Shown here: positions 13,331-28,597 of the stretch, one piece after another
Numbering within the stretch: position 1 is the first letter of the stretch
Layout: every line of letters starts with the position of its first letter
From: an uncultured Eubacteriales bacterium
Lineage (GTDB): Bacteria; Bacillota; Clostridia; Christensenellales; UBA1242
NCBI GenBank assembly: GCA_949841245.1
Contig: CATKYT010000001.1
Span: forward strand, 10,906-74,905
DNA: 64,000 nucleotides
Direction of reading: 5' to 3'
Position numbers and translations under genes: made by a program
Notes under the pieces: model-generated
What the model saw: only the letters and a program-made list of their open reading frames with translations
Databases searched by the model: none
Told to the model about the DNA's origin: nothing

Positions 13331-14419
13331 TTATTTATTAATTTTCTTTACTTGTTCCCAAGGGAAAGCAGGATTTCCGAAGTGACCATAACATGCTGTT
13401 TGTTTAAAGATTGGTCGAAAAAGTTGCAATTCTTTGATTATATTGTCAGGTGAGAAATCAAAATTTTTGTTTACTATTTCATATATTTTTTCCAAACTGA
13501 TTTTTTCTGTGCCAAAAGTTTCAATGCAAAGAGAGATAGGTTTTTCCATGCCAATGCCATAAGAAACTTCAATTTCACATTTGTCACAAAGTTTGTTGTA
13601 AACCAAATTTTTGGCAACATAGCGCGCATAATATGCACCAGAGCGGTCAACCTTTGTGGCATTTTTACTGGAAAAACATCCACCACCAACTTTGGCGATT
13701 CCACCATAGGTGTCTACAACAATTTTTCTTCCCACACAGCCACTGTCACCAAAACTGCCCCAAATTGTAAATTTTCCACTTGGATTAATGATGAATTTAG
13801 TTTCCTTTTTAACAAATTTTCTATATTCTTCCAAAACGACATCCACAACATTGGTTTGAATTTTGCTTTGCAAATTTTCGCAACCTTTTTTATGACTTGC
13901 GCTGATTAAAATTGTGTCTATGTAAAGGGGTTTATTGTCATCATAACAGAAAGAAACTTGACATTTGGCGTCAGCAAAAAATTCGTCTGTGGTTTGACGA
14001 TATTCTTCAAAGCGTTTCATAAGTTTATGTGCCATTGTAATTGTGAGTGGCATAAATTCTTTTGTTTCATTTGTGGCATAACCATAAACCATTCCTTGAT
14101 CATTGGCACAAAGTTTTTGCTTTACAACAGCTTGATTAATGTCTGGGCTTTGTTTGGAAATTTCTGTGACAATTTTAAATTTCTTTTTATATCCGATTTG
14201 TGTCAAAATTTCATTGGCAATTTTTTTCCAGTCAATTTTTGCCGTTGTGGTTGCTTCACCATAAACAAAAAGTTTGTTGTTTTTAATGGCACATTCGACA
14301 GCCATTTGTGCGTTGGCATCTTGTCTTAATGCTTCATCTAAAAAAGCGTCAGCAATTACATCACATGTTTTGTCTGGATGTCCAATGTTTACGCTTTCGC
14401 TTGTTAAAATTTTTTTCAT
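13331..14419 (-). CDS. metK: S-adenosylmethionine synthetase
   Basis: KILTSESVNIGHPDKTCDVIADAFLD and GGGCFSSKNATKVDRSGAYYARYVAKN. Start set at ATG 14419 with SD AAGGAGAAAAC. The listed 5' extension to 14494 overlaps the riboswitch terminator. Confidence 0.95.
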   Translation of the reverse strand: MKKILTSESVNIGHPDKTCDVIADAFLDEALRQDANAQMAVECAIKNNKLFVYGEATTTAKIDWKKIANEILTQIGYKKKFKIVTEISKQSPDINQAVVKQKLCANDQGMVYGYATNETKEFMPLTITMAHKLMKRFEEYRQTTDEFFADAKCQVSFCYDDNKPLYIDTILISASHKKGCENLQSKIQTNVVDVVLEEYRKFVKKETKFIINPSGKFTIWGSFGDSGCVGRKIVVDTYGGIAKVGGGCFSSKNATKVDRSGAYYARYVAKNLVYNKLCDKCEIEVSYGIGMEKPISLCIETFGTEKISLEKIYEIVNKNFDFSPDNIIKELQLFRPIFKQTACYGHFGNPAFPWEQVKKINK

Positions 14420-14443
14420 AGTTTTCTCCTTGGTCATAAGAGT

Positions 14444-14586
14444 AAAAAAAGACTGCCACATATGCGACAGTTGAAACAGTTTCCATCGCATCAAGCATTA
14501 GCACCTTGTCATTTTCAATTATCTTATTATAATGATAGGTTGCTGTGTGGTCAACGGGCTTGTCCCTTACACACTCTTTATGGTTA
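14444..14586 (-). promoter_or_regulatory. SAM-I (S-box) riboswitch with terminator expression platform
   Basis: The leader reads AGAGTGTGTAAGGGACAAGCCCGTTGACCACACAGCAACC ... AAGGTGCTAATGC, matching the S-box core. It is followed by terminator ACTGTCGC-ATAT-GTGGCAGT plus CTTTTTTT at 14471..14444. Confidence 0.8.
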
Positions 14587-17219: not shown

Positions 17220-17295
17220 TGGTGGAGATAATCGGATTCGAACCGATGACCCCCTGCTTGCAAGGCAGGTGCTCTACCAACTGAGCCATACCCCC
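17220..17295 (-). tRNA. tRNA-Cys (anticodon GCA), CCA encoded
   Basis: The minus strand reads gggggta-tg-gctc-agttggta-gagc-a-cctgc-cttGCAa-gcagg-gggtc-atcgg-ttcgaat-ccgat-tatctcc-a-cca, 76 nt. The discriminator is A rather than the usual U. Confidence 0.85.
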
Positions 17296-17882: not shown

Positions 17883-18092
17883 TTAGTTTTTGCAACCGCA
17901 ACCACAGTTAGAGAGCAAAATCAAGAACAACAATGTTTGACAATCGATGCAGATTTCGCCACCTTTCATGTTTCCGCAGCCACAACCACAGTTTTGTAAG
18001 AGCAAAAGTAAGAAGATAAGAGAGCAGCAGTCCATACCGCAGTTGCAATCTCTGCCTACTTCGCCACAATTTGAGCCTCCAAAAAAGTTCAT
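17883..18092 (-). CDS. Cys/Gly-rich mini-protein with two tandem repeats of a hydrophobic stretch followed by NCGCGC
   Basis: MNFFGGSNCGEVGRDCNCGMDCCSLIFLLLLLQNCGCGCGN / MKGGEICIDCQTLLFLILLSNCGCGCKN. It has SD AGGAGG 7 nt upstream and its own terminator. Confidence 0.6.
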   Translation of the reverse strand: MNFFGGSNCGEVGRDCNCGMDCCSLIFLLLLLQNCGCGCGNMKGGEICIDCQTLLFLILLSNCGCGCKN

Positions 18093-18211
18093 TTGTGCCT
18101 CCTAAAAGTTTCTTATGTACGACTTTTGTGTGCTTAAAGTTCTTGCACATTAACAATGTATTTAAAAACCAAAAAAAATGTGCATAAAAAATTTTTTTGT
18201 TAATATAAATA

Positions 18212-18240
18212 TTGCCAATCGGCAATGAAAATGTTATAAT
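18212..18240 (+). promoter_or_regulatory. promoter TTGCCA-17-TATAAT for 18264..18623
   Basis: TTGCCA at 18212..18217, a 17-nt spacer, TATAAT at 18235..18240. Confidence 0.55.
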
Positions 18241-18263
18241 TAGGCATAAGGAGAAACACAAGA

Positions 18264-18623
18264 ATGGATATGACAGAAGAAGAAAGATATTTAAAATACA
18301 TCAACGAACAAGCCAAAATTCTTGAAATGGAAGAAGAACGAGCTCGACAAGCTCAACAAAGAGAAGCAAGAGAAAGGCTGGAAAGGCAACAAGGTAAAGG
18401 ACCTGATAACACGATTTTGGCGATGGCTGAGCAAATTCAAAAAGAACAAAAAAAGAAAGAAAGTGAAAGACAAGCATCAGAAAATCATAATGAAACAATG
18501 TCAGCAATTAATGGCATAAAAGAAACATTGTCTTCTCAAATTGCCAACAATAATTTGGACGCTTCAAGTCAAAATCAAGCACCTGTAAACCAAGGACCTG
18601 AAAGAACTATAGTTAAAAGATAA
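18264..18623 (+). CDS. hypothetical highly charged coiled-coil protein
   Basis: 119-aa ORF, E/R/Q/K-rich, with SD AAGGAG. Confidence 0.5.
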   Translation: MDMTEEERYLKYINEQAKILEMEEERARQAQQREARERLERQQGKGPDNTILAMAEQIQKEQKKKESERQASENHNETMSAINGIKETLSSQIANNNLDASSQNQAPVNQGPERTIVKR

Positions 18624-18687
18624 AAAGGAACATTAGTTTCTTTTTTTTCATAAAATATTTGACAAATTTTCAATGAGGTAAAATATA

Positions 18688-19377
18688 ATGAAAAAACTTA
18701 TGACAATAATGGCATGTTTTGCTATGATTTTAGTGGGTGGTTTGACACTTGCTGGATGCGGTGGTCCAACAGAAACCGAAATCAGTGCAACAGAGGCACA
18801 AACTTTCATTAATTCACAAGATTTTGAAAGTAAGTTTGCTGGTGGATATTTATATAAAATGGCAGGTGGAATTCTTTCTACACAAGTAAAGTTCAACAAT
18901 GGCAACATTGCGGAATTTAAATATGAATCAAACCAAAGCGCTGAAAACTTCAAGTTATACATTAAAGATGGCAAAGCATACCTTGACACAGAAGATACAA
19001 AAGTTTGGGCAAACGTTCAAGATATTGAAGACACTGAATATGGTCCTTATTTTAAATCCATTATGGATTCAGTAGATGTAACCCATGTTACAAACTTGGT
19101 TAAACAACAAGCAGTTGTATATTACACCAAATTCATCAAAAAAGTTGATGGAAACAAAACTGAACTTGTTTGCAGTGGTGAACATGAAGGAGTTACCGCT
19201 CAAATCAGTTTAACCTTTGTTGACGGAAAATTGGAAAAAGTTGTTGGTTCTCAAAAGGGTCAAGAAGTTTTGACACTTGAAACACTCAACACAATTGTTT
19301 TTCCAGACTTAGTTGGATATGAAGAATATCAAGAACCAAGCATTGAAGTTGACCCAGAACAAACAGTGGTTGCTTAA
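18688..19377 (+). CDS. lipoprotein, unknown function
   Basis: Signal peptide with lipobox LTLAGC. Confidence 0.7.
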   Translation: MKKLMTIMACFAMILVGGLTLAGCGGPTETEISATEAQTFINSQDFESKFAGGYLYKMAGGILSTQVKFNNGNIAEFKYESNQSAENFKLYIKDGKAYLDTEDTKVWANVQDIEDTEYGPYFKSIMDSVDVTHVTNLVKQQAVVYYTKFIKKVDGNKTELVCSGEHEGVTAQISLTFVDGKLEKVVGSQKGQEVLTLETLNTIVFPDLVGYEEYQEPSIEVDPEQTVVA

Positions 19378-19384
19378 TAGTTAA

Positions 19385-19417
19385 CAAAAAAAAGAAGTCA
19401 GATCGACTTCTTTTTTT
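19385..19417. terminator. bidirectional terminator
   Basis: A-run, then stem gaagtc / gacttc with loop agatc, then T7. Confidence 0.6.
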
Positions 19418-19592
19418 ATAAACTTCTTACATTATCTTCCAAAACGCTTTCATAAGTTTTAACAGTTGTGGAAGTTGTGAATCCTGATGATAACTCCTTT
19501 TCTGATTCGCAGGTTTCATCAACTAATTCAAAGTTTTCACCTTCATAAGCATTAGTTTGCATTTTGTCGATGTAATTTCTTAAAAATTTCAT
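19416..19592 (-). CDS. small acidic hypothetical protein (58 aa, below the ORF-track cutoff)
   Basis: ATG at 19592 with SD AAGGAG 6 nt upstream. Reads MKFLRNYIDKMQTNAYEGENFELVDETCESEKELSSGFTTSTTVKTYESVLEDNVRSL and stops with TAA at 19418..19416. Confidence 0.4.
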   Translation of the reverse strand: MKFLRNYIDKMQTNAYEGENFELVDETCESEKELSSGFTTSTTVKTYESVLEDNVRSL

Positions 19593-19643
19593 TTATTTCT
19601 CCTTAATCTAGTTTATGTTTTTTTGCTTGTTAAATTTAAAAAA

Positions 19644-20438
19644 TCATCTTCCTTTATAAGTCTTTTTAAATTTCTGTTGTCTTTCCCAGATTGACATAAT
19701 CCATTTATGTGGCAAGATTTTGACCAGTGCAGTTTGGGCTTTAGATTTAAAACCATAAAGCACAACTTCTTTGCGTTTTAATGCTGCTTTCATTCCGCGC
19801 TTAACCACTTTATCAGCATTATACATTGCAACATATTTTTTTATGACGGTTTCTTTTGTTTTTACATCTGTTGCTCTGTCAAAAAATGGAGTTTTTGTCC
19901 AATAAGGGCAAAGACAAGTCACGCTGATTTTACGAGATTTCAGTTCTCGGTTTAATGCACGAGAATAAGACAACACATATGCTTTTGTTGCACCATACAC
20001 GGCAATATATGGAATTGGTTGAAATGCGGCAATTGAACCGAATTCGACTATTCTTCCACCTTCTTTCATAAAAGGAAGCGAAAGAAGTGTAAGATGTGTC
20101 AATGCTTTACAGTTAAGGTCAATCATGCCAATTTGTGCTTCTGTTGAAATGTCATCATAACGACCAAACTTTCCGTAACCACTGGCATTTATAAGCCACT
20201 GGACGCAAACATCTTTTTCCTTTTTAAGTTCTTCTTCAAGTGTTTTAAAACTTTCATCTTTGGTTAAATCCAACGAGTAAAACTTAAAAGTTGTTTTAAG
20301 GTCACTTTGCATTTTTTCAACTGCATCAGTTTTAAGTGCAATTCCCCAAATTTCATCTAAGCCAAGTTTGTCAATTTCATAACAAAACTTTTGTCCCATG
20401 CCAGATGAAGCACCAGTTATTATTGCAATGTTTTTCAT
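19644..20438 (-). CDS. short-chain dehydrogenase/reductase (SDR) family oxidoreductase
   Basis: TGASSGMG cofactor motif and YGATKAY catalytic YxxxK. Confidence 0.85.
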   Translation of the reverse strand: MKNIAIITGASSGMGQKFCYEIDKLGLDEIWGIALKTDAVEKMQSDLKTTFKFYSLDLTKDESFKTLEEELKKEKDVCVQWLINASGYGKFGRYDDISTEAQIGMIDLNCKALTHLTLLSLPFMKEGGRIVEFGSIAAFQPIPYIAVYGATKAYVLSYSRALNRELKSRKISVTCLCPYWTKTPFFDRATDVKTKETVIKKYVAMYNADKVVKRGMKAALKRKEVVLYGFKSKAQTALVKILPHKWIMSIWERQQKFKKTYKGR

Positions 20439-20529
20439 TTTATATCTCCCAAGCTAAACTATTTTATCAGATTTCATACAGTTTTGCAAAGAAAAATGGT
20501 TTAAAACATTTTTTAATTTCTTTTTACGC

Positions 20530-20559
20530 TTGCCTTTTTATTTTTCTTTTTGTTATAAT
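20530..20559 (+). promoter_or_regulatory. putative operon promoter TTGCCT-18-TGtTATAAT (extended -10)
   Basis: TTGCCT at 20530..20535, TG at 20551..20552, TATAAT at 20554..20559. SD AGGAG precedes ATG 20591. Confidence 0.4.
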
Positions 20560-20590
20560 TAACTTGTAAGATTATATCATAGGAGAAACT

Positions 20591-21436
20591 ATGGAAAAAA
20601 CTATTACTTTTTCTGGAAGTAATGAAAAATTGTTTTCAAGATGTCTTTTGGAAAGTTTGGATGTTCGACAGACAATAATTGTTCCAGAAACACACAACGC
20701 CATTTTGGTTAAAGATGGGCAAATGTTGCAAACTTTGTCTTCTGGGAAATACAGATTGGATTCATTTGTTGACCAAAAAGAAGATGCTGGTTCAACTTTG
20801 GAAGTTCTGTTTATGTCAAAAACCGCAAAACTTAAACTTTTGTGGGGAACAGCACAAAGATTTACACTTTATGATTTTGTTTTGGATGAAGATTACCATG
20901 TCGGCATGAGCGGTGATTTTGAAGTTCAAATTGGCGACCCAAGAAAATGCTATCTTTATCTTGTCGGAGTGGCAGATGACTTGACAGCAGACGGATTGCA
21001 AGAAAGGTTGCAATCAAATGTTGTTTCCGTTTTGGAAGATGTCGTTATGCAATTTGCCGAAGCAAACAAAGTTTGTTTCAATCAACTTTCGCTTACCAAG
21101 AAAAAGGTTTCTGCCAAGGTTTTGACACAATTAAACCAAAAACTTATGAATGAATACGGAATTGCGGTTTTTTCTTTCAACATTGCAAACATTATAATAG
21201 AAGAAAATGATCACAAACGACTTTCGGCGCGTTTTAAAGAATTGAAAAACCCTAAAAGTCAAGAAAAGCCGGAAAATGGTTTCTTTTGCAAAGGATGTGG
21301 TCAAGCATTGGAAGAAGATGCCAAGTTCTGCCCATATTGTGGTAAGAAAGTTGGTGGAAACAAGTTGTGTCCAAATTGTCAAGCCGAAAATCCTGTTGGT
21401 GCAAAATTTTGCTCATCTTGCGGAAATAAATTATAG
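20591..21436 (+). CDS. SPFH-fold protein of the YdjI type fused to C-terminal double zinc ribbon
   Basis: NAILVKDGQMLQTLSSGKYRL, VLFMSKTAKLKLLWGT, FEVQIGDPRKCYLYLVG and EYGIAVFSFNIANIIIEE parallel my recollection of B. subtilis YdjI. The C-terminus has CKGCG..CPYCG and CPNCQ..CSSCG. Confidence 0.65.
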   Translation: MEKTITFSGSNEKLFSRCLLESLDVRQTIIVPETHNAILVKDGQMLQTLSSGKYRLDSFVDQKEDAGSTLEVLFMSKTAKLKLLWGTAQRFTLYDFVLDEDYHVGMSGDFEVQIGDPRKCYLYLVGVADDLTADGLQERLQSNVVSVLEDVVMQFAEANKVCFNQLSLTKKKVSAKVLTQLNQKLMNEYGIAVFSFNIANIIIEENDHKRLSARFKELKNPKSQEKPENGFFCKGCGQALEEDAKFCPYCGKKVGGNKLCPNCQAENPVGAKFCSSCGNKL

Positions 21437-21447
21437 GAGGAAAAATT

Positions 21448-21867
21448 ATGTTGGCATTTTTAATAGTTATTTTAATTTTAATTTTGGGTGTTTCTGCCTT
21501 TTACATCTGGAAAGAATATTTTTATAAGGGCGACAGAAAGAAAGGTGAAAAACTTGACATAGGTGGTCGTGGTGTAATGAAAAACAAAAAAGCCATTGAA
21601 AGCATGGTGGCAAATGTGGAAAGTATTATTGTTTATGCAAACGGAAACGACACTCTTTGTAATCGTTTGGTGGAAGTTAAGGACAACATCAGATTTTTTA
21701 ACCCAACAACAAATCAAAAGGCTTTGGCAGTTGACGCCAAACTTTCAGCCAAACTTGATGACCTTAAAATTGCAGTAGCAAAAGACAACACACAGGAAAC
21801 ATGTTTCAGATTGTTGGAAGAAGTTGAAGCATATATTGTTCAACGCAAAAAGGAAGAACAGGCTTAA
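21448..21867 (+). CDS. single-pass membrane protein with cytoplasmic helical domain
   Basis: N-terminal TM helix (LAFLIVILILILGVSAFYIW) and strong SD AGGAGG. The stop overlaps the next start (TAATG). Confidence 0.55.
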   Translation: MLAFLIVILILILGVSAFYIWKEYFYKGDRKKGEKLDIGGRGVMKNKKAIESMVANVESIIVYANGNDTLCNRLVEVKDNIRFFNPTTNQKALAVDAKLSAKLDDLKIAVAKDNTQETCFRLLEEVEAYIVQRKKEEQA

Positions 21868-22220
21868 TGAAAAGAACCTATCAAGTTTCAGCCGATGTGG
21901 CAGAGAAAGAAAAAGCGTTAAAGGAACTTAATCTTGGATATTTGAATTTGGAAGACAGGATGTTTGAACAAGCAAAACTCAGTTTTGAAATTGTGTTGCA
22001 ATTTGACCCTAAGTGTGCGGATGCCTATTGGGGTTTGATGCTTACAAAATTTCAATTATCAAACGAAAATGATTTGACAGACAACGCCATTCTTTATAAA
22101 ACGGCAATATATTTGCCAGAATATGAAAACGCAATGAATTATGCTGACAAAAACCAGAAAAAACGATTTGAAGATATGCTGGAAAACATACATAAAATCA
22201 ATGCTGGCGACAATTTTTAA
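21867..22220 (+). CDS. small TPR-like helical-repeat protein
   Basis: FEQAKLSFEIVLQFDPKCADAYWGLMLTKFQL is TPR-like. The same motif type recurs in 24646..28437. Confidence 0.5.
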   Translation: MKRTYQVSADVAEKEKALKELNLGYLNLEDRMFEQAKLSFEIVLQFDPKCADAYWGLMLTKFQLSNENDLTDNAILYKTAIYLPEYENAMNYADKNQKKRFEDMLENIHKINAGDNF

Positions 22221-22232
22221 AAAGGAGCGACT

Positions 22233-22862
22233 ATGTGGTTACCATTTAAGAGAAATAAATTTAAAAAACTAAACAGAGAAGACCTTGTTAATTCCATCTG
22301 CGAATTAGAAAGACAGGAAAGAACAGTGGAAGCGGAAGTTTTTCAAAAGTTGAAAGAAATTGACGCTTTAAAAGAAAAAGGTAAGAAAGAAAAGAATAAA
22401 GAACTTCAACTTTTCTACGCAAAAAAAATTAGTCATTTAAACGAAGAAAAACAAACTTGCATGGAAAGGGGAATGTATTTGCTTTACAACATTCGTCTTA
22501 TGAATAAACTTAAAGATGCTTATGACAGCAACACTTTCTTCAAAACACAAACAAAAGTTCCACTCAGCGAACTTTTGAAAGACCAAACAGGATTGGCGAA
22601 GTTTTTAAATAAGGCTTTACAAACCAGAATTAAGTCAGAAGATGTTTTGACAAGTGCAGATGACTTGTTTGCCGAAGTGCAAGCGGCTTATGATGTCAGC
22701 GAGCCTATTTATGGAGTTGGAAAGCAAGAAGAAGAACTTTTAAGCATGTTTGAACAAGAAGACCAACTCAGTGATGAGCGTGAGTTATATCAAGCACAAG
22801 AAGATTATGAAGAACCTGCAAAGGAAACTATAAAAAAGAAAAAAGCGAAATTGGAGGAGTAA
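22233..22862 (+). CDS. ESCRT-III/Snf7-superfamily-like protein (Snf7/Vps20-like paralogue)
   Basis: Basic N-terminal helical hairpin (..KGKKEKNKELQLFYAKKISHLNEEKQTCMERGMYLLYNI..) and an acidic C-terminal third. The layout parallels Snf7/CHMP6 as I recall them. SD AAGGAG is present. Confidence 0.5.
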   Translation: MWLPFKRNKFKKLNREDLVNSICELERQERTVEAEVFQKLKEIDALKEKGKKEKNKELQLFYAKKISHLNEEKQTCMERGMYLLYNIRLMNKLKDAYDSNTFFKTQTKVPLSELLKDQTGLAKFLNKALQTRIKSEDVLTSADDLFAEVQAAYDVSEPIYGVGKQEEELLSMFEQEDQLSDERELYQAQEDYEEPAKETIKKKKAKLEE

Positions 22863-22865
22863 AAA

Positions 22866-23462
22866 ATGGGACTTTTTAAATCTAAGGAAGAAAAGGCAAT
22901 TGAAAAAAAGATGTTGATTAAAAGAACAATCAACTCAATGAACAAACAAATCAACAAACTTGAAGCACAAAAACAAGTGTTTGTTGATGCGGCAAAAAAG
23001 GCAAAGCAAAAAGATTTGGATGCTCAGTATAATTTGGCACTTTCTGGTTATAAGATGACTGTTCAACAACAAAAACGCGCACAAGAAATGCTTTTAAATT
23101 TTGAAATTACAGCACAAATGAAAGATGTAACTATGATGACTGCTGAATTTTTGCATGGTATGAGTGACATCAGCAAAGAGATGACCAAATTTGCAGATGC
23201 CAAAGAATTTGCCAAAATTCAAAATCAATTCGAGCAAGCAATGGCTGCTGTTGAAACTCAGGCTGACCAAATGGATAATTTCATGGAAATGAGCCAAGAA
23301 ACTTTCTATAATCAAGGAAAGGCAAGAGATGGCAAAGAGATGTCTGATGAAGAATTTGAAAAGTTTATTGAAGAACAAGCAAGCCAAGATGAAATGTCAT
23401 CTGAATCAATTGATAAAGAAATGGAAGAACTTAGAAAGAAAATTGAATCTGACATGAACTAA
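22866..23462 (+). CDS. ESCRT-III-like protein (Vps24/CHMP3-Vps2 class)
   Basis: Compare MGLFKSKEEK...VDAAKKAKQKD with recalled CHMP3 MGLFGKTQEK...VKDAAKKGQKD. Also SKEMTKFADAKEFAKIQNQFEQAMAAVETQADQMDNFME. The N-terminal half is basic and the C-terminal half acidic, ending in an amphipathic helix IDKEMEELRKKIESDMN. Confidence 0.7.
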   Translation: MGLFKSKEEKAIEKKMLIKRTINSMNKQINKLEAQKQVFVDAAKKAKQKDLDAQYNLALSGYKMTVQQQKRAQEMLLNFEITAQMKDVTMMTAEFLHGMSDISKEMTKFADAKEFAKIQNQFEQAMAAVETQADQMDNFMEMSQETFYNQGKARDGKEMSDEEFEKFIEEQASQDEMSSESIDKEMEELRKKIESDMN

Positions 23463-23480
23463 ATAAAAGGATTTTTGCCA

Positions 23481-24635
23481 ATGAATGATAAAAATACAAG
23501 CATAAGTGTTTTGTCTGACAAATTTGACCTTTACATGAAAAAAGGCAAACAGGCAAAAGAACAAGGAAACATCGCACTTGCCAAAAGAAATTTTTTGCTG
23601 GCAAGCGAAGTTATGATGCAAATGGCTAAGCAAAGTCAAGGAAAACTTAAAGAAGTGCGAATGGACAGAGCGCGCCGATTGGTGGAACTTACTGACAATT
23701 TAAACAAGAAACCTATTAAAGTGGAAAAAAGCGAAAAACCAAAAGGCGAAAACAATAACTCAGAAGAAGATGAAGATGTAAAAAAATGGCAAACCGCAGA
23801 AGTGCCAAAAATCAGTTTCAGTGATGTTGCTGGGCTTGACGATGTTAAGAAAGCCATTACAATTCGAATGATTAATCCGATTAAATATCCTGACAAATAC
23901 AAAATGTATGGCAAGAAAACAGGCGGTGGAGTGCTTTTATATGGCCCGCCTGGAACTGGTAAAACCATGATAGCAAAAGCCATTGCCAATGAAGTTGGTG
24001 CAAAGTTTTACGCCATAAAAGGTTCTGATATAGTCAGCAAATGGGTTGGCGACAGCGAAAAGAACATCAATTCACTTTTCCAAGAAGCCAACAAACAAGA
24101 CAGAGCAATCATCTTTATTGATGAAATGGACAGTTTGATTGGCAAGCGTGGTGTTGACACACACAACGACAAGCGTGTCAACGAATTTTTGCAACAAATT
24201 GATGGTGTTTCTGGAAGAAATCAAAATTTACTTCTTCTTGGTGCAACCAACAGACCATGGGATATTGACAGTGCAGCAATGCGTTCTGGAAGATTTTCTC
24301 AAAAAATCTATCTTCCATTGCCAGATGCACCAGCCAGAAAATTTATGATTGAAAAGGCACTTAAAGGTGTGCCAGTTGACAAAGATTTTGATGTCAACAG
24401 AGTTGTGGAACAAACTGAACTTTACAGTGGTGCGGACATAGAAGAATTGTGTGACCGTGCAAAGGACGAACCACTTTTGAAGTCAATCGCCACAGACAGT
24501 GTCGTTTTGGTGACTAATTCCGACTTTGACAAAGTGTTGGAAGTTTTGCCACCAAGCGTGACTATGAAAGAATTGAAAGAATTTGAAGACTATAATAATG
24601 AAGTTTCAAGTTACATAAAGAAACCTAAAAAATAA
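23481..24635 (+). CDS. MIT-domain AAA+ ATPase, Vps4/CdvC-like
   Basis: N-terminal three-helix segment (KKGKQAKEQGNIALAKRNFLLASEVMMQMAK..RARRLVELTDNL). Walker A GPPGTGKT, pore loop SDIVSKWVGDSEK, Walker B IIFIDEMDSL, and ATNRPWDIDSAAMRSGRF. Start set at ATG 23481, 9 nt after AAAGGA. Confidence 0.8.
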   Translation: MNDKNTSISVLSDKFDLYMKKGKQAKEQGNIALAKRNFLLASEVMMQMAKQSQGKLKEVRMDRARRLVELTDNLNKKPIKVEKSEKPKGENNNSEEDEDVKKWQTAEVPKISFSDVAGLDDVKKAITIRMINPIKYPDKYKMYGKKTGGGVLLYGPPGTGKTMIAKAIANEVGAKFYAIKGSDIVSKWVGDSEKNINSLFQEANKQDRAIIFIDEMDSLIGKRGVDTHNDKRVNEFLQQIDGVSGRNQNLLLLGATNRPWDIDSAAMRSGRFSQKIYLPLPDAPARKFMIEKALKGVPVDKDFDVNRVVEQTELYSGADIEELCDRAKDEPLLKSIATDSVVLVTNSDFDKVLEVLPPSVTMKELKEFEDYNNEVSSYIKKPKK

Positions 24636-24645
24636 CGGAGAATTT

Positions 24646-27600
24646 GTGAAAGAGCGTGTTTGTAAAAATTGTGGGGGCAGACAATATAAAGTTGTTGGGC
24701 AAAACATGGTTAAATGTATGTTTTGTGGGACTCTCTATGTGGACGAACAGGCTTCAAAGGAAGAAGAAGTTTTAATTGTTGGTGCAAACGAAAAACTTCG
24801 AGACCTTAAATTTAAAGAAGCAGTTGATGAATTTAACAAAATTCTTTTGCTGTTTCCTTTTTCTTTTGCTGGTTTCTATGGCAGAGCGCTTGCCACAAAC
24901 AAAATTGTGCTTTATTCCAACAACAAAAACATGTCAAAAAGGCCACGCTTTTTTGGTGAAGACATTTCTTCACTTTCAAAAAACAGTGACTTTAAGCGTG
25001 CAGTGGAACTGGCTCCTGCTGAAACAGCAAAAACTTATAATGCTCTTGCAAAGCGGGTGGACAAAATTAGAACTGCTTACAGAGAGATTAAGGAAAAAGT
25101 TGATGTCATTTTAAGTGCTGTTGACAACAATAGATTGCAGAATGTTCTTTCTGATGTAGTCGATAAACTTAACGAACATAAATTTAAAAGTTATGTTATG
25201 CCTGACAACAATGAATTAGAAGAAGTTACATTCAATGCACTTCAAAGAGCAAAAGTTTTGCTTTTGTTTGTGACGGACAGCAATATAAACAGCACATTTA
25301 GAAGTGTTTATGAAAGATATTTATATTTCATTTCACAAAGAAAGAAAACAAAAACAAGTTTAATTTTAATTGCCGACCAATCAAATTTGGATATGTCAAG
25401 GTTGCCGATTGAACTTCAATCTTGCAAAAACATTTTGGATTTGAATTCAGACACATTGCTTTTTGACATTCAAGTTATGGTTGGCGAAGAAATGCGAAAA
25501 TCAGCATCAGAAATTGCCAAAATTGACACAATAAAAGTTGATAAAGTTCAACCTAAAAAGAAAAAATACATAGCCACTGAAACAATTAATCCGCTTGAAC
25601 TTGGGCATTACCATGTGGATAATGTAGAAATCACAGAAGAAGGCAAAATTAAATGGATTTATTTGTCATTGAAAAATGGTGACTTTGCCACAGCAGAAGA
25701 AGTTTTGGTGACTGAGTTGGAAAATGATGCCAACAATGCCGAACTTTTACTTGCCCAACTTATGATTTCAAGACAAGTCAAAACAAAAGAAGAATTTTTT
25801 GATAATATTTCCAATTTCAAAAACACAGAAGAAATTGACAGAATTTTGCAATTTGCATCCAAAGGTTTTGCCGAAGAATTTGTGGACAGCATGGAAAATC
25901 TTGTTATTAAATTGCATGATGTAAGTTATTACAACACTTTTCTTTTATACCTTGCAAAATACAACAGCCCAAACCGTCAAAACTTTATTGACAGTGCCAA
26001 AGTTTTGGCTGTGGAAACCATGAATGAAGAACTGATTGAAAAGGTTTTAAGGTGTTTCAAAAAGTCTGATGTTGATGGGATTGTGCAGTTTTATTTTGAT
26101 TTGGCCCAGAAAAGCGACAACAAAAAATATTATGAAAAAATTTTGGAAATTGACGAAGGTCATGCAGAAAGCAACTATGCGGCTTTGTTTGAACACTTTA
26201 AAACGGTTAAAGAATTGCTTACCTACCAAAACCGAAACGAATTGGAAGCGGTGTTTAAATTTTTAAATGGCTCACAACGCGATGAGTTTATTTCCAGACT
26301 TATCAATATGATTATGGAAGTGGCATTTATTGACCTTGAAAAATGTCAAACACAAATTGATTTCTATTTGTCATATGTTTCAGATAATAAACGATTGGTT
26401 GCCATTTTAAAATCAATTGTGCAGAGATTTTTGCATTTAGAATTTTTCACACAAGCGGAGAAATATATTTCCATTGCCATCAACAAAGATAAGAAGAATG
26501 CAGAGTTGTTTTGGTTTTTAATTTTGGCTAAGGCACATTGCCGTAAAGAACAAGAACTTATTACTTCAAATGTAAAAATAACTCAACTGCCAGAATGGTC
26601 AACATTGTTGACACTTGCCAATGAACAGCAATCTGAAAAATATGCTGGAATTGTCAGCAAAATGAATTTGTTTAAAGGTTCCAAAAAAGAATTTAAAGAA
26701 GATGCTTTGGACAAAGCCCAATACATTTCAAAGACAAATGAATTTTTGGACAGGAATTACAAAATTCTGTTGGAAATGGAAAAACAAGAAGGCACTTCTG
26801 TGTTGCGTGGTGTGAATTATTATCGCTTGCAACTTCAACCTTTTGAAGAATATGTCAAGTTGCTGGAAAACATAAATAAATATGATGAATTCATCGATGT
26901 TGTTTTAAGAATAGAAGACAGACTTAAAAATTTGGACTTAACTTTTGAAGCATCTATAAATGTCACAAATTTGTTGGATAAAGAAAAATATTTAAATAAA
27001 GCGCTTGGCGAATATGATGATGTAAGGGAAGAAAAACACAGAAAAAAAATTAAAGATATAAGAAAAGATGTCTTTTTAAAACATTTTTTACTTAGTTTCT
27101 TGGTTTATTTTCCTGCACTTTTTACCACTGTGCTTTTAATTACGACTTTGTCTGCCCCAAAAGAAGTTTACATGAATTTCAGTTACAACTTCTTGGTTTG
27201 CACGCTTATTTATTCTGTTGCGGTGGCAATTATAAGTTTGATTTATTTCATTGTAAAAAAACATAAATCATCATTTAAACTGAAAGTCATGAATTTAAGT
27301 CTAATGGGTATTGGACTTGCGAATGTAATTTTGTTGCTTCTTGGTTTTTATGCTTTTCCTGTAAAAATGCAAATCAATAACTTGGAAGAATTCAACACTT
27401 TGATTCACAATGCCAGCCATGCTTCATTTGTTTTGCAACAAGATTTAGACATGTCTAATGTTTTATGGGACAGTGTAAATTTTACAGGCACATTAGATGG
27501 AAATGGCAAAACATTAAAAAATGTCAAATTCTTAAAAAACAGCAATGGTCTTTTTGCAACAAACTCTGGAACTATTAAAAATTTGAATGTCATTTTGTCC

Positions 27601-28437
27601 CATGAATTATATAATAATCCCAACCTTTTTGGCACAATTGCAGGCACAAATGTCGGCACAATCGAAAGATGTTCAGTTTCCGGCAAAATTAATTTTGAGT
27701 GCAACATTAATGCAGTGATTGGTGGCATTGTTGGAAATTTAAAAGGTGGAAAGATTTACAACTGTAAATCAAATCTTACTGTTGGAATTTCAGTAAATTC
27801 CGGTGATGTTATTTTCGGCGGAGTGGCAGGAAAAATTGTTGAAGGGAAAAAGACTTCAGAAATTAAAAAGACTTCTGTTGAAACTTTAACATTAAATTTG
27901 ACAGCAAACAATGCAAAAGTTTTAAATGCAGGTGGACTGGTTGGTTATGTTGAAAGTTTTGCTGAGAAAAAATTTGCCGTGGATTCAAACAATGTTGTCA
28001 TCGAAGCACACGCAAATGGTAATGCAGAAACATTATCGTTTGGTGGACTGGTTGGCTATGGTGAACTTGGTGCGTCCAACAACTATACTGTTGGAGAGAT
28101 TAATGTCAGTCAACTTGGTGGTGAAAGGTGTGTTGGTGGGCTTTATGGAAAATTGATTGTGGATTCTGACAAAATCAACAAAACAAAAATTATCTCATCA
28201 TATTCAACTGTTGACATAAATTCAGATGATGATTATTCCGAAGTCGGAAGTCTGGTCGGCAGACTTGGCGGAGAAATGGAAAACTGTTTTTCAAGTTCTT
28301 CATTGAATGTGTTTGGAAACAGAGTTGGATTTGGTTCTGCCAAAAACTGTGATAACAAAAAGTTGTTTTATGAAAACAAATATAAATTTGACGAAAACAT
28401 TTGGGATTTAACTGGTAATTTTCCAATTTTAAAATAA
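24646..28437 (+). CDS. multidomain membrane protein: cytoplasmic zinc ribbon plus helical (TPR-like) repeats, three TM helices, extracellular GLUG-type domain
   Basis: GTG start 5 nt after GGAG. Zinc ribbon CKNCGG..CMFCG. Three hydrophobic helices encoded at about nt 27080..27365. C-terminal FTGTLDGNGKTLKNV, GGIVGNL, GGLVGYV, FGGLVGYG, VGGLYGKL and VGSLVGRL repeats. Confidence 0.65.
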   Translation: MKERVCKNCGGRQYKVVGQNMVKCMFCGTLYVDEQASKEEEVLIVGANEKLRDLKFKEAVDEFNKILLLFPFSFAGFYGRALATNKIVLYSNNKNMSKRPRFFGEDISSLSKNSDFKRAVELAPAETAKTYNALAKRVDKIRTAYREIKEKVDVILSAVDNNRLQNVLSDVVDKLNEHKFKSYVMPDNNELEEVTFNALQRAKVLLLFVTDSNINSTFRSVYERYLYFISQRKKTKTSLILIADQSNLDMSRLPIELQSCKNILDLNSDTLLFDIQVMVGEEMRKSASEIAKIDTIKVDKVQPKKKKYIATETINPLELGHYHVDNVEITEEGKIKWIYLSLKNGDFATAEEVLVTELENDANNAELLLAQLMISRQVKTKEEFFDNISNFKNTEEIDRILQFASKGFAEEFVDSMENLVIKLHDVSYYNTFLLYLAKYNSPNRQNFIDSAKVLAVETMNEELIEKVLRCFKKSDVDGIVQFYFDLAQKSDNKKYYEKILEIDEGHAESNYAALFEHFKTVKELLTYQNRNELEAVFKFLNGSQRDEFISRLINMIMEVAFIDLEKCQTQIDFYLSYVSDNKRLVAILKSIVQRFLHLEFFTQAEKYISIAINKDKKNAELFWFLILAKAHCRKEQELITSNVKITQLPEWSTLLTLANEQQSEKYAGIVSKMNLFKGSKKEFKEDALDKAQYISKTNEFLDRNYKILLEMEKQEGTSVLRGVNYYRLQLQPFEEYVKLLENINKYDEFIDVVLRIEDRLKNLDLTFEASINVTNLLDKEKYLNKALGEYDDVREEKHRKKIKDIRKDVFLKHFLLSFLVYFPALFTTVLLITTLSAPKEVYMNFSYNFLVCTLIYSVAVAIISLIYFIVKKHKSSFKLKVMNLSLMGIGLANVILLLLGFYAFPVKMQINNLEEFNTLIHNASHASFVLQQDLDMSNVLWDSVNFTGTLDGNGKTLKNVKFLKNSNGLFATNSGTIKNLNVILSHELYNNPNLFGTIAGTNVGTIERCSVSGKINFECNINAVIGGIVGNLKGGKIYNCKSNLTVGISVNSGDVIFGGVAGKIVEGKKTSEIKKTSVETLTLNLTANNAKVLNAGGLVGYVESFAEKKFAVDSNNVVIEAHANGNAETLSFGGLVGYGELGASNNYTVGEINVSQLGGERCVGGLYGKLIVDSDKINKTKIISSYSTVDINSDDDYSEVGSLVGRLGGEMENCFSSSSLNVFGNRVGFGSAKNCDNKKLFYENKYKFDENIWDLTGNFPILK

Positions 28438-28597
28438 AGTTTTTACAAAAAAAATAAAATGAAAAAGGTTCTTTCAAGAACTTTTTTTCATATATAAATA
28501 AGATTGCAAAATTTTTGATCCAACAAATGAAATTAGTTGACTTATCAACTTTTTGTGTGATAAAATCAGTTTACTTTATGAATTAAGCGAGGTGACA

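Follow-up and report, generated by a model that had tools for sequence, protein, structure and literature searches.

A seven-gene operon in the 64,000-nucleotide stretch of DNA that we analysed (the window), from an uncultured Eubacteriales bacterium, encodes a genuine bacterial version of the ESCRT-III/Vps4 system that had not been described. It brings together a Snf7-type ESCRT-III protein, a MIT-AAA ATPase and an SPFH protein in a gut Clostridia bacterium, beyond the archaea and eukaryotes to which current reviews restrict the ESCRT-III and MIT-AAA (Vps4) pairing. We found no description in the literature examined of a bacterial system combining Snf7-type ESCRT-III, MIT-AAA and SPFH proteins, in agreement with the original prediction, which knew of no characterized system of such composition. 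On balance, we favor the view that the operon is a bacterial membrane-remodeling module with an archaeal-like ESCRT-III/AAA core on a YdjI-type SPFH scaffold, operating by the mechanism proposed below. The leading candidates for its role are membrane stress response or defense.

Operon layout and the first three genes

The tightly spaced, same-strand open reading frames (ORFs) of the original prediction were all recovered (Table 1). They are separated by gaps of 11, −1 (a TAATG overlap), 12, 3, 18 (12 with the TTG start of ORF6) and 10 nt, and all seven starts are preceded by a purine-rich SD-like motif, as predicted. The sequence AAAGGA precedes ATG 23481 by 9 nt but TTG 23475 by just 3 nt, and ORF6 orthologues start at the methionine equivalent to ATG 23481. 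The spacing and the orthologue starts make ATG 23481 the better start, as in the revised gene model proposed earlier. The single promoter-like site expected upstream of the cluster is located in a 152-nt intergenic gap but is a consensus match only, and such matches are not above chance in the whole region (35 observed versus 28.4 ± 5.7 expected). The anticipated T-run hairpin lies 3′ of the final stop codon; the consensus scanner did not call it because its stem has too few G-C pairs. Furthermore, the GC content of the operon (0.32–0.35) is the same as in the remainder of the window, consistent with the earlier description of the cluster as native.

Table 1. Predicted features of the operon, with positions numbered along the window.
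Feature	Position	Strand	Length	Predicted content
Promoter-like site	20530-20559	+		TTGCCT-18-TATAAT, extended -10 TG; 10/12 consensus matches
ORF1	20591-21436	+	281 aa	soluble SPFH (Band_7_1) + two C-terminal zinc ribbons
ORF2	21448-21867	+	139 aa	TM helix at N-terminus, then helical domain
ORF3	21867-22220	+	117 aa	free-standing TPR-like helical module
ORF4	22233-22862	+	209 aa	all-helical; predicted ESCRT-III-like topology
ORF5	22866-23462	+	198 aa	Snf7-type ESCRT-III family
ORF6	23481-24635	+	384 aa (386 from TTG 23475)	MIT-like domain + single AAA cassette
ORF7	24646-28437	+	1263 aa	zinc ribbon, TPR-like, TIR-like, 3 TM helices, GLUG
Terminator-like hairpin	28459-28491	+		A-tract/stem/T7; -10.8 kcal/mol, z = -3.9

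ORF1 has the Pfam domains Band_7_1 (E = 2.9e-13), Zn_Ribbon_1 (2.5e-14) and DZR (1.1e-10) and no predicted TM segment. Its domain architecture, a soluble SPFH protein carrying zinc ribbons, is like that of YdjI and upholds the SPFH/zinc-ribbon call made previously. Related loci keep it as the first gene of the cluster. The second gene, present in most related loci, codes for a protein with a TM helix (residues 2–20) and no family assignment in Pfam or NCBIfam, and is a candidate membrane anchor. ORF3 matched ORF7 orthologues and TIR proteins of ~580 aa in phmmer searches (E down to 1.5e-10), as well as the TIR proteins of the distant loci L089 and L086. These matches identify ORF3 as a free copy of the TPR-like module at the N-terminus of ORF7 and the TIR proteins. 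A separate gene of this type was detected only in Caccovivens-type loci (plus L058).

ESCRT-III-like proteins and their ATPase partner

Because direct searches with ORF2–ORF5 returned no Pfam, NCBIfam or PADLOC match (for ORF5 as a single sequence, none that was significant), the Snf7-like labels of the original prediction required family-level analysis, and ORF5 was assigned from family profiles. Searched against the PDB, its family profile matched CHMP2A over nearly the full length (E = 9.8e-6), CHMP3 (0.0038), CHMP1B and Vps24, with no PspA/Vipp1 match at E ≤ 10. ESCRT-III chains account for 8 of its 16 PDB matches, the top three included, and align colinearly across about 140–155 residues. 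Furthermore, Snf7 was the sole Pfam family to recur among ORF5 relatives (17/101, and 10/28 of the closest; best E = 1.4e-9). The profiles support the earlier Snf7-like call and identify ORF5 as a Snf7-type, not a PspA-type, member of the ESCRT-III family. The linkage to MIT-AAA genes, as in archaea, provides independent support for the resemblance.

The predicted structure of ORF5 agrees in part. Its AF2 helices (residues 7–48, 52–107, 112–149, 161–172 and 179–197) follow an ESCRT-III-like pattern, but the pair of AF2 models (ORF5 and ORF4) has low confidence (pLDDT values of 60 and 63.5) and Foldseek matches to ESCRT-III had E > 0.1. The protein starts with the motif MGLFKSK and ends in an amphipathic, MIM1-like helix (IDKEMEELRKKI), which has a glutamate where MIM1 has its arginine. 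The MIM1-like tail motif is conserved, although only 32% of the family members have it, versus 5.6% of shuffled tails.

ORF4 has a predicted helical hairpin (residues 15–52/56–106, AF2 pLDDT about 90) plus shorter helices, and a basic motif at its N-terminus. Its best Foldseek matches were Asgard ESCRT-IIIB and CHMP3, all at E > 0.5, and its profile scored ORF2 orthologues as well as ORF5 relatives. An hhalign comparison with a 201-aa Thermococcus plasmid protein gave a probability of 58% (E = 1e-4), and the gene adjoins ORF5 in every related locus where it is present. The modeled topology is ESCRT-III-like, but in that respect only; family membership is unproven. Thus, of the two Snf7-like paralogues originally proposed, only ORF5 is shown to be one, because none of the sequence methods used placed ORF4 in the ESCRT-III family.

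The ATPase (ORF6) consists of a MIT-like three-helix N-terminal domain, an acidic linker, one AAA cassette, a lid and a C-terminal helix. It has Walker A (GPPGTGKT) and Walker B (IIFIDEMD) motifs, a pore loop (SKWVGDSEK) and an arginine-finger region (MRSGRF), and matches Pfam AAA (8.8e-43), AAA_lid_3 and, at 19.4 bits (under the 21.3 cut-off), Vps4_C. The MIT-like assignment is based on the family profile, the N-terminus of ORF6 alone being below significance: the profile matches MIT domains from chitin synthase (E = 0.0033), CdvC and Vps4A/B, and 4/24 orthologues match Pfam MIT. The NCBIfam CdvC model aligns end to end (protein residues 12–375 to model positions 6–366 of 370), with a score of 212 bits versus the 650-bit cut-off. 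Hence the MIT-AAA+ architecture called earlier is supported, and its Vps4-like label holds for the CdvC-like length and alignment and for the pore loop, which agrees with SKW(M/L)GESEK of Vps4. The label does not extend to phylogeny. The tree placed ORF6 within a well-supported bacterial clade between Cdc48-D2 and Vps4, and the node uniting it with the meiotic clade had a bootstrap of 33–46%. The best pairwise match of its AAA cassette was to p97 D2 constructs (199 bits versus 188 for Vps4), and its arginine-finger region is of the classical-clade type (R-x-G-R-F), lacking the RRR arginine motif of Vps4/CdvC. By sequence, membership of ORF6 in the Vps4/meiotic clade is not robust.

Conservation, distant loci and TIR partners

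The gene combination is widely conserved: SPFH, ORF4, ORF5 and AAA genes share one order across 75 of the 80 species-level gut Clostridia genomes, down to 50% ORF5 identity. Across dozens of species, the cluster has a fixed chromosomal position, conserved flanks and native GC. Every distant locus having sequence downstream of the Snf7-like gene (7/7) continues with an AAA gene that has this MIT-like N-terminus too (E 1e-8 to 1e-29), and direct fusions of the Snf7-like domain to FtsK-like and RuvB-like ATPases were also found. Genes for SPFH and TIR-domain proteins usually accompany the distant relatives as well, with Band_7_1 again in L086, L088 (weak) and L090 and TIR proteins in L086, L089 and L090. 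Other neighbors are Sel1-trypsin and TerD genes (L086), a two-AAA protein after the Snf7-like gene with kinase/PP2C/VWA and EAD9 (L088), a BrxL-like ATPase and SNF2 helicase (L089) and FHA/PP2C/kinase genes (L090). The TIR, kinase/phosphatase, BrxL-like and trypsin-like neighbors may indicate that the module works in signaling or conflict and not in housekeeping repair of membranes.

We also identified a related locus (L092) on a plasmid of the archaeon Thermococcus peptonophilus. It encodes a Snf7-like protein with 28% identity to ORF5 (profile E = 1.8e-27), a Vps4-like AAA (Vps4_C 35.8 bits; best BLAST matches katanin and Vps4), a kinase and a PP2C phosphatase. This locus matches the euryarchaeal ‘Main’ ESCRT type, which has Vps4, ESCRT-III and arCOG09748/arCOG08177 and frequently also a Ser/Thr kinase and a phosphatase (Makarova et al., 2024, PMC10936438).

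ORF7 combines a zinc ribbon (residues 1–35), a TPR-like module, a TIR-like domain (~150–290) and a long helical/TPR region, followed in its C-terminal half by three TM helices (809–904) and a GLUG-repeat domain (~910–1263) with one GLUG motif (Glug, 23.4 bits against a gathering cut-off (GA) of 20.5). TM segments and the positive-inside pattern orient the latter to the outside. The transmembrane GLUG protein of the original prediction was thus recovered, but its zinc ribbon, TPR-like module and inactivated TIR-like domain had been overlooked. Residues 1–218 align to the zinc-ribbon/TIR protein of L086 (E = 6e-5), and in loci of the Coproplasma and Christensenellaceae types the equivalents of ORF7 match TIR_2 at 28–42 bits, above the Pfam cut-off. 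The catalytic glutamate column is V/L/Y in the window’s clade, where the TIR-like domain is inactivated and probably serves as a scaffold. Because TIR is intact in most relatives, the ancestral system is suggested to have coupled a TIR sensor/effector to ESCRT-III activity in response to envelope damage or infection.

Proposed mechanism, alternative readings and known systems

In the mechanism that we propose, ORF5 would bind the cytoplasmic membrane face via its basic N-terminal motif and polymerize, possibly with ORF4. ORF1 would recruit or confine the polymer at the membrane via ORF2 and/or ORF7, in the way that YdjI acts on PspA in B. subtilis. A hexamer of ORF6 would dock by its MIT-like domain onto the MIM1-like C-terminal helix of ORF5 and thread subunits through its pore loop (KWVG, of the Vps4 type), and the ATP-driven polymer turnover could lead to membrane repair, constriction or shedding. 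ORF7, spanning the membrane, would couple the cell exterior, where its GLUG domain lies, to the module in the cytoplasm.

The module recurrently has TIR proteins as partners, which the original prediction had not noticed, and this opens a defense reading that it had named only briefly: an anti-phage or conflict system centered on the TIR membrane protein, with ESCRT-III/AAA/SPFH as regulator or effector. We regard it as a tentative possibility, and equally so its examples, the assembly or dissolution of TIR oligomers at the membrane and membrane disruption or shedding in abortive infection. It overlaps the membrane-remodeling reading, and the two are not mutually exclusive. The above-threshold TIR_2 and distant TIR proteins favor it, as do the defense-island-type neighbors recurring in L086, L088, L089 and L090, but the catalytic glutamate is gone in the window’s clade and the fixed, native setting of the cluster is unlike patchy defense islands. 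Moreover, PADLOC gave no match beyond generic AAA similarity, none of 50,697 phage records held a relative and the sole plasmid match was archaeal. TIR immune systems include Thoeris and the TIR-TM effectors of CBASS/Pycsar. ORF7 relatives are likewise membrane-anchored TIR_2 proteins, but the operon lacks a ThsA-like or cyclase partner as well as the catalytic glutamate, and we found no described TIR system with ESCRT-III, SPFH or MIT-AAA in the literature examined or PADLOC.

The cluster resembles a core-genome feature of its clade and exposes a large surface domain through ORF7, as might a machinery for developmental membrane fission (cytokinesis, engulfment/forespore fission or vesicle release) rather than stress or defense. 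In TACK archaea, ESCRT-III/Vps4 serves cell division and vesicle formation, as with the Cdv system of Sulfolobus. Yet division and sporulation genes are absent within the cluster and distant relatives occupy variable, accessory-looking contexts, making this role unlikely. Slightly more doubtful is that ORF6 acts in membrane-protein quality control as a general unfoldase of the Cdc48 type, with ORF4/ORF5 as coiled-coil adaptors or substrates and no ESCRT-type polymer or remodeling. Its p97 D2 matches, its classical-clade R-x-G-R-F motif and the precedent of the SPFH proteins HflK/C, which partner the FtsH protease, agree with such a role; against it stand the MIT-like N-terminus kept in every partner ATPase, the homology of ORF5 to CHMP/Snf7 across the whole core and the genuine Vps4_C-positive ATPase of the archaeal locus. 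An artefact of charged coiled-coil composition among unrelated helical proteins would fit the lack of significant single-sequence matches, the Foldseek values (with designed helical bundles among the matches) and the undiscriminating ORF4 profile, but is very improbable given the colinear ESCRT-III matches of the ORF5 profile (best E rounding to 1e-5), the recurrence of Snf7 and the archaea-like linkage to MIT-AAA genes.

The operon shares with the ‘Main’-type locus L092 a Snf7-type protein and a MIT-like AAA ATPase in one operon and a second helical protein of ~200 aa, the weak ORF4 relative described above. The kinase and PP2C partners of this type are shared with the bacterial loci L088 and L090. 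However, the L092 ATPase is a clear meiotic-clade Vps4 whereas the bacterial ATPase forms its own clade, and the bacterial system also has a YdjI-like SPFH protein and membrane proteins of the TIR/TPR kind. Crenarchaeal CdvABC and eukaryotic ESCRT-III/Vps4 likewise have an ESCRT-III family subunit with the MIM1-like tail, the MIT domain with a single AAA, the KW-phi-G pore loop and, in CdvC, the length of ORF6. Unlike them, the operon lacks CdvA, ESCRT-I and ESCRT-II, its host is bacterial and ORF6 departs from CdvC/Vps4 in score and RRR motif and is not robustly within the Vps4 clade.

B. subtilis YdjI, likewise soluble, combines an SPFH domain with a zinc finger at its C-terminus and recruits or confines PspA at the membrane (Scholz et al., 2021, PMC8581546). 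The PspA-YdjGHI system resembles the operon in combining an ESCRT-III superfamily protein with such a protein (ORF1) and with small membrane-protein anchors, ORF2 and ORF7 being only candidate homologues of YdjG or YdjH. In contrast, the operon has a Snf7-type protein instead of PspA_IM30 and a dedicated MIT-AAA, absent from PspA systems. The Psp/YdjGHI-like neighborhood of the original prediction is partly supported, through ORF1, ORF5 and the MIT-AAA, with ORF4 and the Vps4 clade as the weaker points. Archaeal ‘Meth_adaptin’ ESCRT loci encode an SPFH, coiled-coil and zinc-ribbon protein (Makarova et al., 2024) and, compared by description only, are like the operon in placing it beside ESCRT-III and Vps4. 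Bacterial Vps4-like ATPases and PspA/double-AAA pairs have also been reported, including Vps4-like transfers to Cyanobacteria, Bacteroidetes and other phyla in which a TPR-6TM protein displaced snf7 (Ravi et al., 2024, PMC11237479). Like the operon, these systems place AAA ATPases of the MIT or classical type in membrane-associated operons of bacteria; unlike the transfers, it keeps the Snf7-type gene beside the ATPase, belongs to Clostridia and has SPFH and TIR partners. The Snf7-like and two-AAA genes of L088 fit the ‘PspA + double AAA’ theme of the same study.

Operon layout and ORF1 to ORF3

The locus is a new bacterial variant of the ESCRT-III/Vps4 kind of system, a seven-gene operon (ORF1 to ORF7) that includes a Snf7-type gene (ORF5) and a gene for an AAA ATPase with an MIT-like N-terminus (ORF6). 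Successive ORFs are spaced by 11, -1, 12, 3, 18 and 10 nt, with a purine-rich Shine-Dalgarno-like motif on the 5' side of every one. Upstream stands a promoter-like site of a type whose matches are not above chance frequency in the AT-rich DNA of the window. Downstream is a terminator-like hairpin with a stem poor in G-C pairs, which was missed by a consensus terminator scan and recovered by folding. The ORFs, their spacing, the Shine-Dalgarno-like motifs, the promoter-like site and the terminal hairpin are all present as the original prediction described them.

Features of the operon, of the rest of the window and of related loci from other genomes (window positions unless a locus or record is named)
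Feature	Position	Strand	Description
Operon	20530-28491	+	seven ORFs, with promoter-like site and hairpin
Promoter-like site	20530-20559	+	consensus match with extended -10
ORF1	20591-21436	+	281 aa, SPFH/zinc-ribbon protein
ORF2	21448-21867	+	139 aa
ORF3	21867-22220	+	117 aa
ORF4	22233-22862	+	209 aa, neighbour of ORF5
ORF5	22866-23462	+	198 aa, Snf7-type
ORF6	23475/23481-24635	+	MIT-like AAA ATPase
ORF7	24646-28437	+	1263 aa, membrane protein with GLUG domain
Terminator-like hairpin	28459-28491	+	A-tract/stem/T7; folding -10.8 kcal/mol, z = -3.9
tRNA gene	8795-8866	+	
ORF, likely metK	13331-14494		387 aa
SAM riboswitch	14480-14586	-	51.1 bits; upstream of the likely metK
tRNA gene	17223-17295	-	
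Cys/Gly-rich ORF	17883-18092	-	69 aa
Glu/Gln-rich protein	18264-18623	+	119 aa
Predicted lipoprotein	18688-19377	+	229 aa
Giant ORF	38981-50371	+	3796 aa
Longer MIT-AAA genes	L060:10759-12243; L066:10608-12071; L083:2748-4250; L080:10576-12159; and others		products of 480-530 aa
Distant locus L084			two Snf7-like genes and MIT-AAA
Distant locus L085			Snf7-like/FtsK-like fusion, Snf7-like gene, MIT-like gene
Distant loci L086/L087			TIR, Band_7_1, two small genes, Snf7-like, two AAA, Sel1-trypsin, Snf7-like/RuvB-like fusion, then TerD genes
Ter-associated genes	L086:9935-17812		P-type ATPase, four TerD, C-C_Bond_Lyase, ATP-grasp, PRTase
Distant locus L088			Snf7-like gene, two-AAA protein, weak Band_7, EAD9, kinase, PP2C, VWA
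Distant locus L089			two Snf7-like genes, MIT-AAA, BrxL-like gene, 1204-aa TIR protein, SNF2 helicase
Distant locus L090			Band_7_1, 237-aa gene, Snf7-like gene, MIT-AAA, TIR+FHA, PP2C, kinase
Archaeal plasmid locus L092	NZ_CP014751.1, record 17914-25289		ESCRT-type locus; plasmid 49 kb, classed non-mobilizable

The SPFH/zinc-ribbon protein predicted for the operon is ORF1, which carries a Band_7_1 domain (E = 2.9e-13; 50.4 bits, cut-off 24) followed by two zinc ribbons at the C-terminus. It has no transmembrane (TM) segment and is a soluble SPFH protein. The same architecture, in which a soluble SPFH protein ends in a zinc finger, is described for YdjI of Bacillus subtilis, which brings PspA to the membrane via YdjG and YdjH (PMC8581546). 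Like YdjI, ORF1 is encoded together with an ESCRT-III superfamily protein, and its operon supplies candidate membrane anchors. ORF2 has a single N-terminal TM helix and was assigned to no family. ORF3 is a free-standing TPR-like module, and the same module is found at the N-terminus of ORF7 and of TIR proteins in related loci.

The ESCRT-III-like and AAA components

On the sequence evidence, we conclude that ORF5 belongs to the Snf7-type ESCRT-III family above all because its family profile matches CHMP/Vps24 proteins and some of its relatives match Pfam Snf7. Family profiles were required for this assignment, as the single ORF5 sequence, like the single ORF4 sequence and the ORF6 N-terminus, has no significant match in Pfam, NCBIfam, PADLOC or the PDB. 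The ORF5 family is large, with 359 clusters at 50% identity reaching E<=1e-3. A profile of 101 diverse family sequences matches CHMP2A in the PDB over nearly the full length (E = 9.8e-6, positions 8-150 against 5-143), and also CHMP3 (0.0038), CHMP1B and Vps24; ESCRT-III chains make up half of the 16 PDB matches, the top three included. Pfam Snf7 (PF03357) is matched by 17 of the 101 family members and by 10 of the 28 closest relatives of ORF5 (best E = 1.4e-9), and no other Pfam family recurs comparably among the relatives.

Two short motifs are also conserved in the ORF5 family. The basic N-terminal motif MG(L/I)FKSK resembles MGLFGK, with which CHMP3 begins. The C-terminal amphipathic helix, D..I(E/D)KEL.ELKKKI, has the spacing of a type 1 MIT-interacting motif (MIM1). 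This tail pattern is found in 32% of the family members versus 5.6% of shuffled tails. At the position equivalent to the MIM1 arginine, 14 of 32 matches have K or R, and the ORF5 of the window has E. The AF2 model, of low confidence (pLDDT 60.5), places helices at residues 7-48, 52-107, 112-149, 161-172 and 179-197, in keeping with the helix order of ESCRT-III. The top Foldseek matches to it were CHMP1B, CdvB, CHMP2A and Vipp1, at E values of 0.18-0.6. A PspA-type identity of ORF5 was rejected: no PspA or Vipp1 chain is among the PDB matches to the family profile at E<=10, though such chains are present in the library, and PspA_IM30 is absent from the Pfam families that recur among ORF5 relatives. 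A homologue search with a broad profile recovered only close relatives from Clostridia; these, like all the database relatives, are annotated as 'hypothetical protein', without a precomputed Pfam domain.

The Snf7-like domain also occurs as an N-terminal fusion to FtsK/SpoIIIE-like ATPases and RuvB-like AAA proteins (related proteins P0297-P0300, P0305, P0306 and P0375; related loci L085, L086 and L091). Some of these fusion proteins end in a C-terminal NERD domain, and such a fusion of ESCRT-III with an ATPase is unusual.

The original prediction held that the operon encodes two Snf7-like paralogues, starting at 22233 (ORF4) and 22866 (ORF5). The family profiles bear this out for ORF5, whereas no sequence method places ORF4. 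ORF4 is highly conserved and always adjoins ORF5. Its profiles, built from 35, 81 or 20 sequences, gave no match in the PDB, Pfam or the ORF5 family (hhalign, jackhmmer and hmmsearch against the ORF5 family, two profiles against the PDB and 20 orthologues against Pfam). Greedy hhalign to the ORF5 family produced a colinear alignment with a probability of 4%. Weak ORF4 matches in a local database were enriched tenfold in ORF5 relatives, but ORF2 orthologues scored equally. The best lead is an hhalign match over 113 columns to a 201-aa neighbour of the Thermococcus Snf7-like gene (probability 58%, E = 1e-4). The AF2 model of ORF4 has a helical hairpin (residues 15-52/56-106, pLDDT about 90) followed by shorter helices, with the remainder below 55. 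Foldseek with this model returned Asgard ESCRT-IIIB and CHMP3 at the top with weak E values (0.55-0.72); as for ORF5, there was no match at E<=0.001, and the lists of both models, enriched in ESCRT-III proteins, are not significant evidence alone. We rejected the label of Snf7 paralogue for ORF4, since no sequence method put it in any family. ORF4 is best described as a conserved partner with a predicted ESCRT-III-like topology and not as a demonstrated paralogue, and we lean mildly toward its being an ESCRT-III paralogue.

ORF6, for which the ATG at 23481 is the preferred start, has one AAA cassette (Pfam AAA, E = 8.8e-43, plus AAA_lid_3). The Walker A and B motifs, sensor 1 and the aromatic pore loop 1 (K-W-phi-G) are intact in this single cassette, reading GPPGTGKT, IIFIDEMD, GATNRPW and SKWVGDSEK, and pore loop 1 matches that of Vps4. 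The Vps4_C domain (PF09336) scores 19.4 bits (E = 0.0011), below its cut-off of 21.3 bits; it is faint in a relative from the distant locus L086 and clear in the Thermococcus homologue (35.8 bits). The NCBIfam CdvC model aligns end to end with ORF6 (residues 12-375 against model positions 6-366 of 370), with a score of 211.8 bits that is far below the cut-off of 650 and the same as that for CDC48 D2.

A profile of 24 orthologous ORF6 N-termini matches mainly MIT domains, including those of chitin synthase (2mpk, E = 0.0033) and CdvC (2w2u, 0.13) and, over their full length, those of Vps4A/B (E 0.37-0.48). Pfam MIT is matched by 4 of the 24 orthologues (best E = 0.0013), and the ORF6 N-terminus alone gave no MIT match. 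This evidence, of moderate strength, suggests that ORF6 carries an N-terminal MIT three-helix domain.

The prediction of a Vps4-like MIT-AAA+ ATPase is thus upheld for the MIT-like domain, the single AAA cassette and the Vps4-type pore loop, and not for membership in the Vps4 clade. The arginine-finger region of ORF6 and its relatives, MRSGRF, is the classical R-x-G-R-F, and the R-R-R-F/L motif of the meiotic clade (Vps4/katanin/spastin) was not found in ORF6. Pairwise BLAST scores are 199 bits for p97 D2, 188 for VPS4A, 185 for yeast Vps4 and 182 for CdvC, and none of the best 60 PDB matches of ORF6 is a Vps4 chain. In small neighbour-joining trees, with most reference sequences entered by hand and p97 taken from its PDB match, the ATPases linked to Snf7-like genes formed a bacterial clade with 98-100% bootstrap support. 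This clade was sister to Vps4/katanin/spastin/CdvC at only 33-46%; p97 D2 was the next branch out (82-88%). ORF6 is therefore Vps4-like in architecture and genomic context but belongs to a distinct lineage, and its membership in the Vps4 family proper is not established. Matches of PADLOC IetA were judged to be generic AAA similarity. In several genera the MIT-AAA proteins are longer, being extended at the C-terminus by a domain of some 100-140 aa that ORF6 lacks (see table).

Related loci and the TIR link

A scan of one genome per GTDB species with a narrow alignment yielded 80 loci, all from animal-gut Clostridia MAGs (Candidatus Caccovivens, Candidatus Coproplasma and Christensenella/Christensenellaceae-like); one of them (CATLAM010000005.1) is 99% identical to the window. 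The predicted gene combination is conserved: 75 of the 80 loci keep the SPFH gene, ORF4, ORF5 and the AAA gene on one strand and in one order, at ORF5 identities as low as 50%. Of the other five, four are truncated by the end of a contig, and the fifth (L061) has no detectable ORF4 or SPFH gene. ORF6 adjoins ORF5 in the window, and the pair is linked in the 79 genome loci that have downstream sequence. Genes flanking the cluster are also syntenic in the Caccovivens group, and in Coproplasma-type loci ORF5 is separated from the ATPase by two genes for TIR proteins of about 580 aa.

More distant relatives, with ORF5 identities of about 25-30%, came from a search of representatives (L084-L090 in the table). 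Wherever downstream sequence exists (7 distant loci), a Snf7-like gene is linked to an AAA gene. All the partner ATPases are matched by the MIT-like N-terminal profile (E 1e-8 to 1e-29), so the invariant core, as judged from these sequences, is a Snf7-like gene plus an MIT-AAA gene, with SPFH and TIR proteins as frequent companions. The variable remaining components of these loci look signalling- or conflict-related. At L086, a P-type ATPase gene, TerD genes and Ter-associated genes lie directly downstream of the Snf7-like/AAA/TIR cluster, which therefore adjoins a tellurite-type stress-response island there.

ORF7 provides a TIR link within the operon itself. This protein begins with a zinc ribbon and crosses the membrane with three TM helices (residues 809-904) in a positive-inside pattern, which predicts that the C-terminal GLUG-repeat domain is outside the cell. 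Residues 1-218 align with a zinc-ribbon/TIR protein of a distant locus (E = 6e-5). The equivalents of ORF7 in other genera match TIR_2 at 28-42 bits, at or above the Pfam cut-off, and have TPR repeats and TM segments; ORF7 itself has no Pfam TIR match. In the column of the TIR glutamate (WVKNEW), ORF7 of the window has V and its two closest aligned clade members have L or Y, so that the TIR-like domain of ORF7 is probably inactive. The overall reading of the locus as an ESCRT-III/Vps4 system was largely right in its core, and this TIR connection, which it missed, is one of three corrections to it, beside the unproven status of ORF4 and the placement of the ATPase, which is not shown to be of the Vps4 clade.

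Searches by tblastn with ORF5 gave no match in 50,697 phage records and a single match among 72,556 plasmids, in Thermococcus peptonophilus (locus L092). Recent import of the cluster, by a mobile element or as contamination, was rejected on the native GC of the cluster, the synteny of its flanks across species, the lack of a phage match and the archaeal origin of the sole plasmid match; the window is a low-GC bacterial chromosome segment (GC about 0.33). The Snf7-like protein of L092 matches the family profile at E = 1.8e-27 and Pfam Snf7 at E = 4e-4. Two more helical proteins, each of about 200 aa, are encoded in the locus, as are a membrane kinase and a PP2C phosphatase. Its AAA ATPase has an MIT-like N-terminus, a clear Vps4_C domain and best BLAST matches to katanin and Vps4. 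Nearly all of its genes are annotated as hypothetical, and it looks like a complete 'Main'-type ESCRT locus with three ESCRT-III-like helical proteins. Its composition matches that of the euryarchaeal 'Main' clade, in which Vps4 and ESCRT-III often occur with a kinase and a phosphatase (Makarova et al. 2024, PMC10936438). 'Meth_adaptin' archaeal ESCRT loci encode a protein with SPFH, coiled-coil and zinc-ribbon parts (PMC10936438). Thus, the bacterial module shares parts with two archaeal variants, the SPFH with zinc ribbon of one and the kinase with phosphatase of the other.

The locus and its relatives contradict published reviews, in that a Snf7-type protein is stably linked to an MIT-domain AAA in many gut Clostridia. 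According to a 2025 review, a Vps4-like ATPase 'appears absent in bacteria', where ESCRT-III is only of the PspA/Vipp1 type (PMC7619361), and Makarova et al. (2024) consider ESCRT homologues identifiable in archaea 'but not in bacteria' (PMC10936438). The closest published precedent is the study of Ravi et al. (2024, PMC11237479), which reports that Vps4-like ATPases were transferred to several phyla of bacteria, where a TPR-6TM gene has taken the place of snf7. The same study describes a pairing of PspA with a two-AAA protein in Clostridium, and a Snf7 domain that is divergent and membrane-anchored. In contrast to those transfers, the window locus pairs a Snf7-type gene with MIT-AAA, SPFH and TIR. 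The literature searched holds no description of a Snf7-type gene, an MIT-AAA, a YdjI-like SPFH and TIR proteins together.

Proposed mechanism and remaining features of the window

The sequence data show which domains the proteins have, how the operon is laid out and that the linkage of its genes is conserved; the mechanism is inferred. ORF5, perhaps with ORF4, would polymerise on the cytoplasmic side of the membrane. The SPFH scaffold of ORF1, tethered through ORF2 and/or ORF7, may localise this polymer by analogy with the recruitment of PspA by YdjI. The MIT-like domain of an ORF6 hexamer would bind the MIM1-like tail of ORF5, so that subunits could be extracted through the pore and the polymer remodelled or recycled, and ORF7 would couple the module to the cell surface. 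An active TIR membrane protein was probably the ancestral partner, which suggests that the system responded to infection or to damage of the envelope; in the clade of the window, the TIR domain appears to have decayed, and the protein has a large surface domain of the GLUG type. Membrane repair, vesicle shedding, defence and developmental fission are all possible roles.

The locus is of relevance to both ESCRT evolution and bacterial membrane biology. If it works as proposed, the module offers a compact bacterial ESCRT-III/Vps4 pairing in which to compare the workings of polymer and ATPase, and it bears on when the partnership of ESCRT-III with its ATPase arose; the recurrent TIR link would then also hint that membrane remodelling is tied, in a way not yet explored, to immunity or stress signalling in bacteria. 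A broader reading, which we hold tentatively and consider rather improbable, is that bacteria possess an ATP-driven ESCRT machine with Snf7-type filaments and MIT-AAA turnover, which shares its evolutionary history with the euryarchaeal ESCRT systems, through either ancient inheritance or transfer between archaea and Firmicutes in anaerobic habitats, and wired in most lineages to membrane TIR sensors, kinases and phosphatases. If true, it would make the module a prokaryotic counterpart of the way in which ESCRT repairs or sheds damaged membrane in immune responses, and the ESCRT-III/Vps4 partnership would not be an archaeal-eukaryotic invention.

Elsewhere in the window, the table lists a SAM riboswitch, the likely metK and two tRNA genes. 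The giant ORF matches no Pfam family at E<=0.01. Two small genes lie upstream of the operon's neighbour: the product of one, rich in Glu and Gln, has a weak DUF2894 match, and the other encodes a predicted lipoprotein with an LAGC lipobox, for which no family was found. The 69-aa ORF has a very high content of Cys and Gly; repeated NCGCGC motifs flank its hydrophobic stretches, and it has no Pfam match. It might encode a small peptide, of the membrane or associated with spores, or be no gene.
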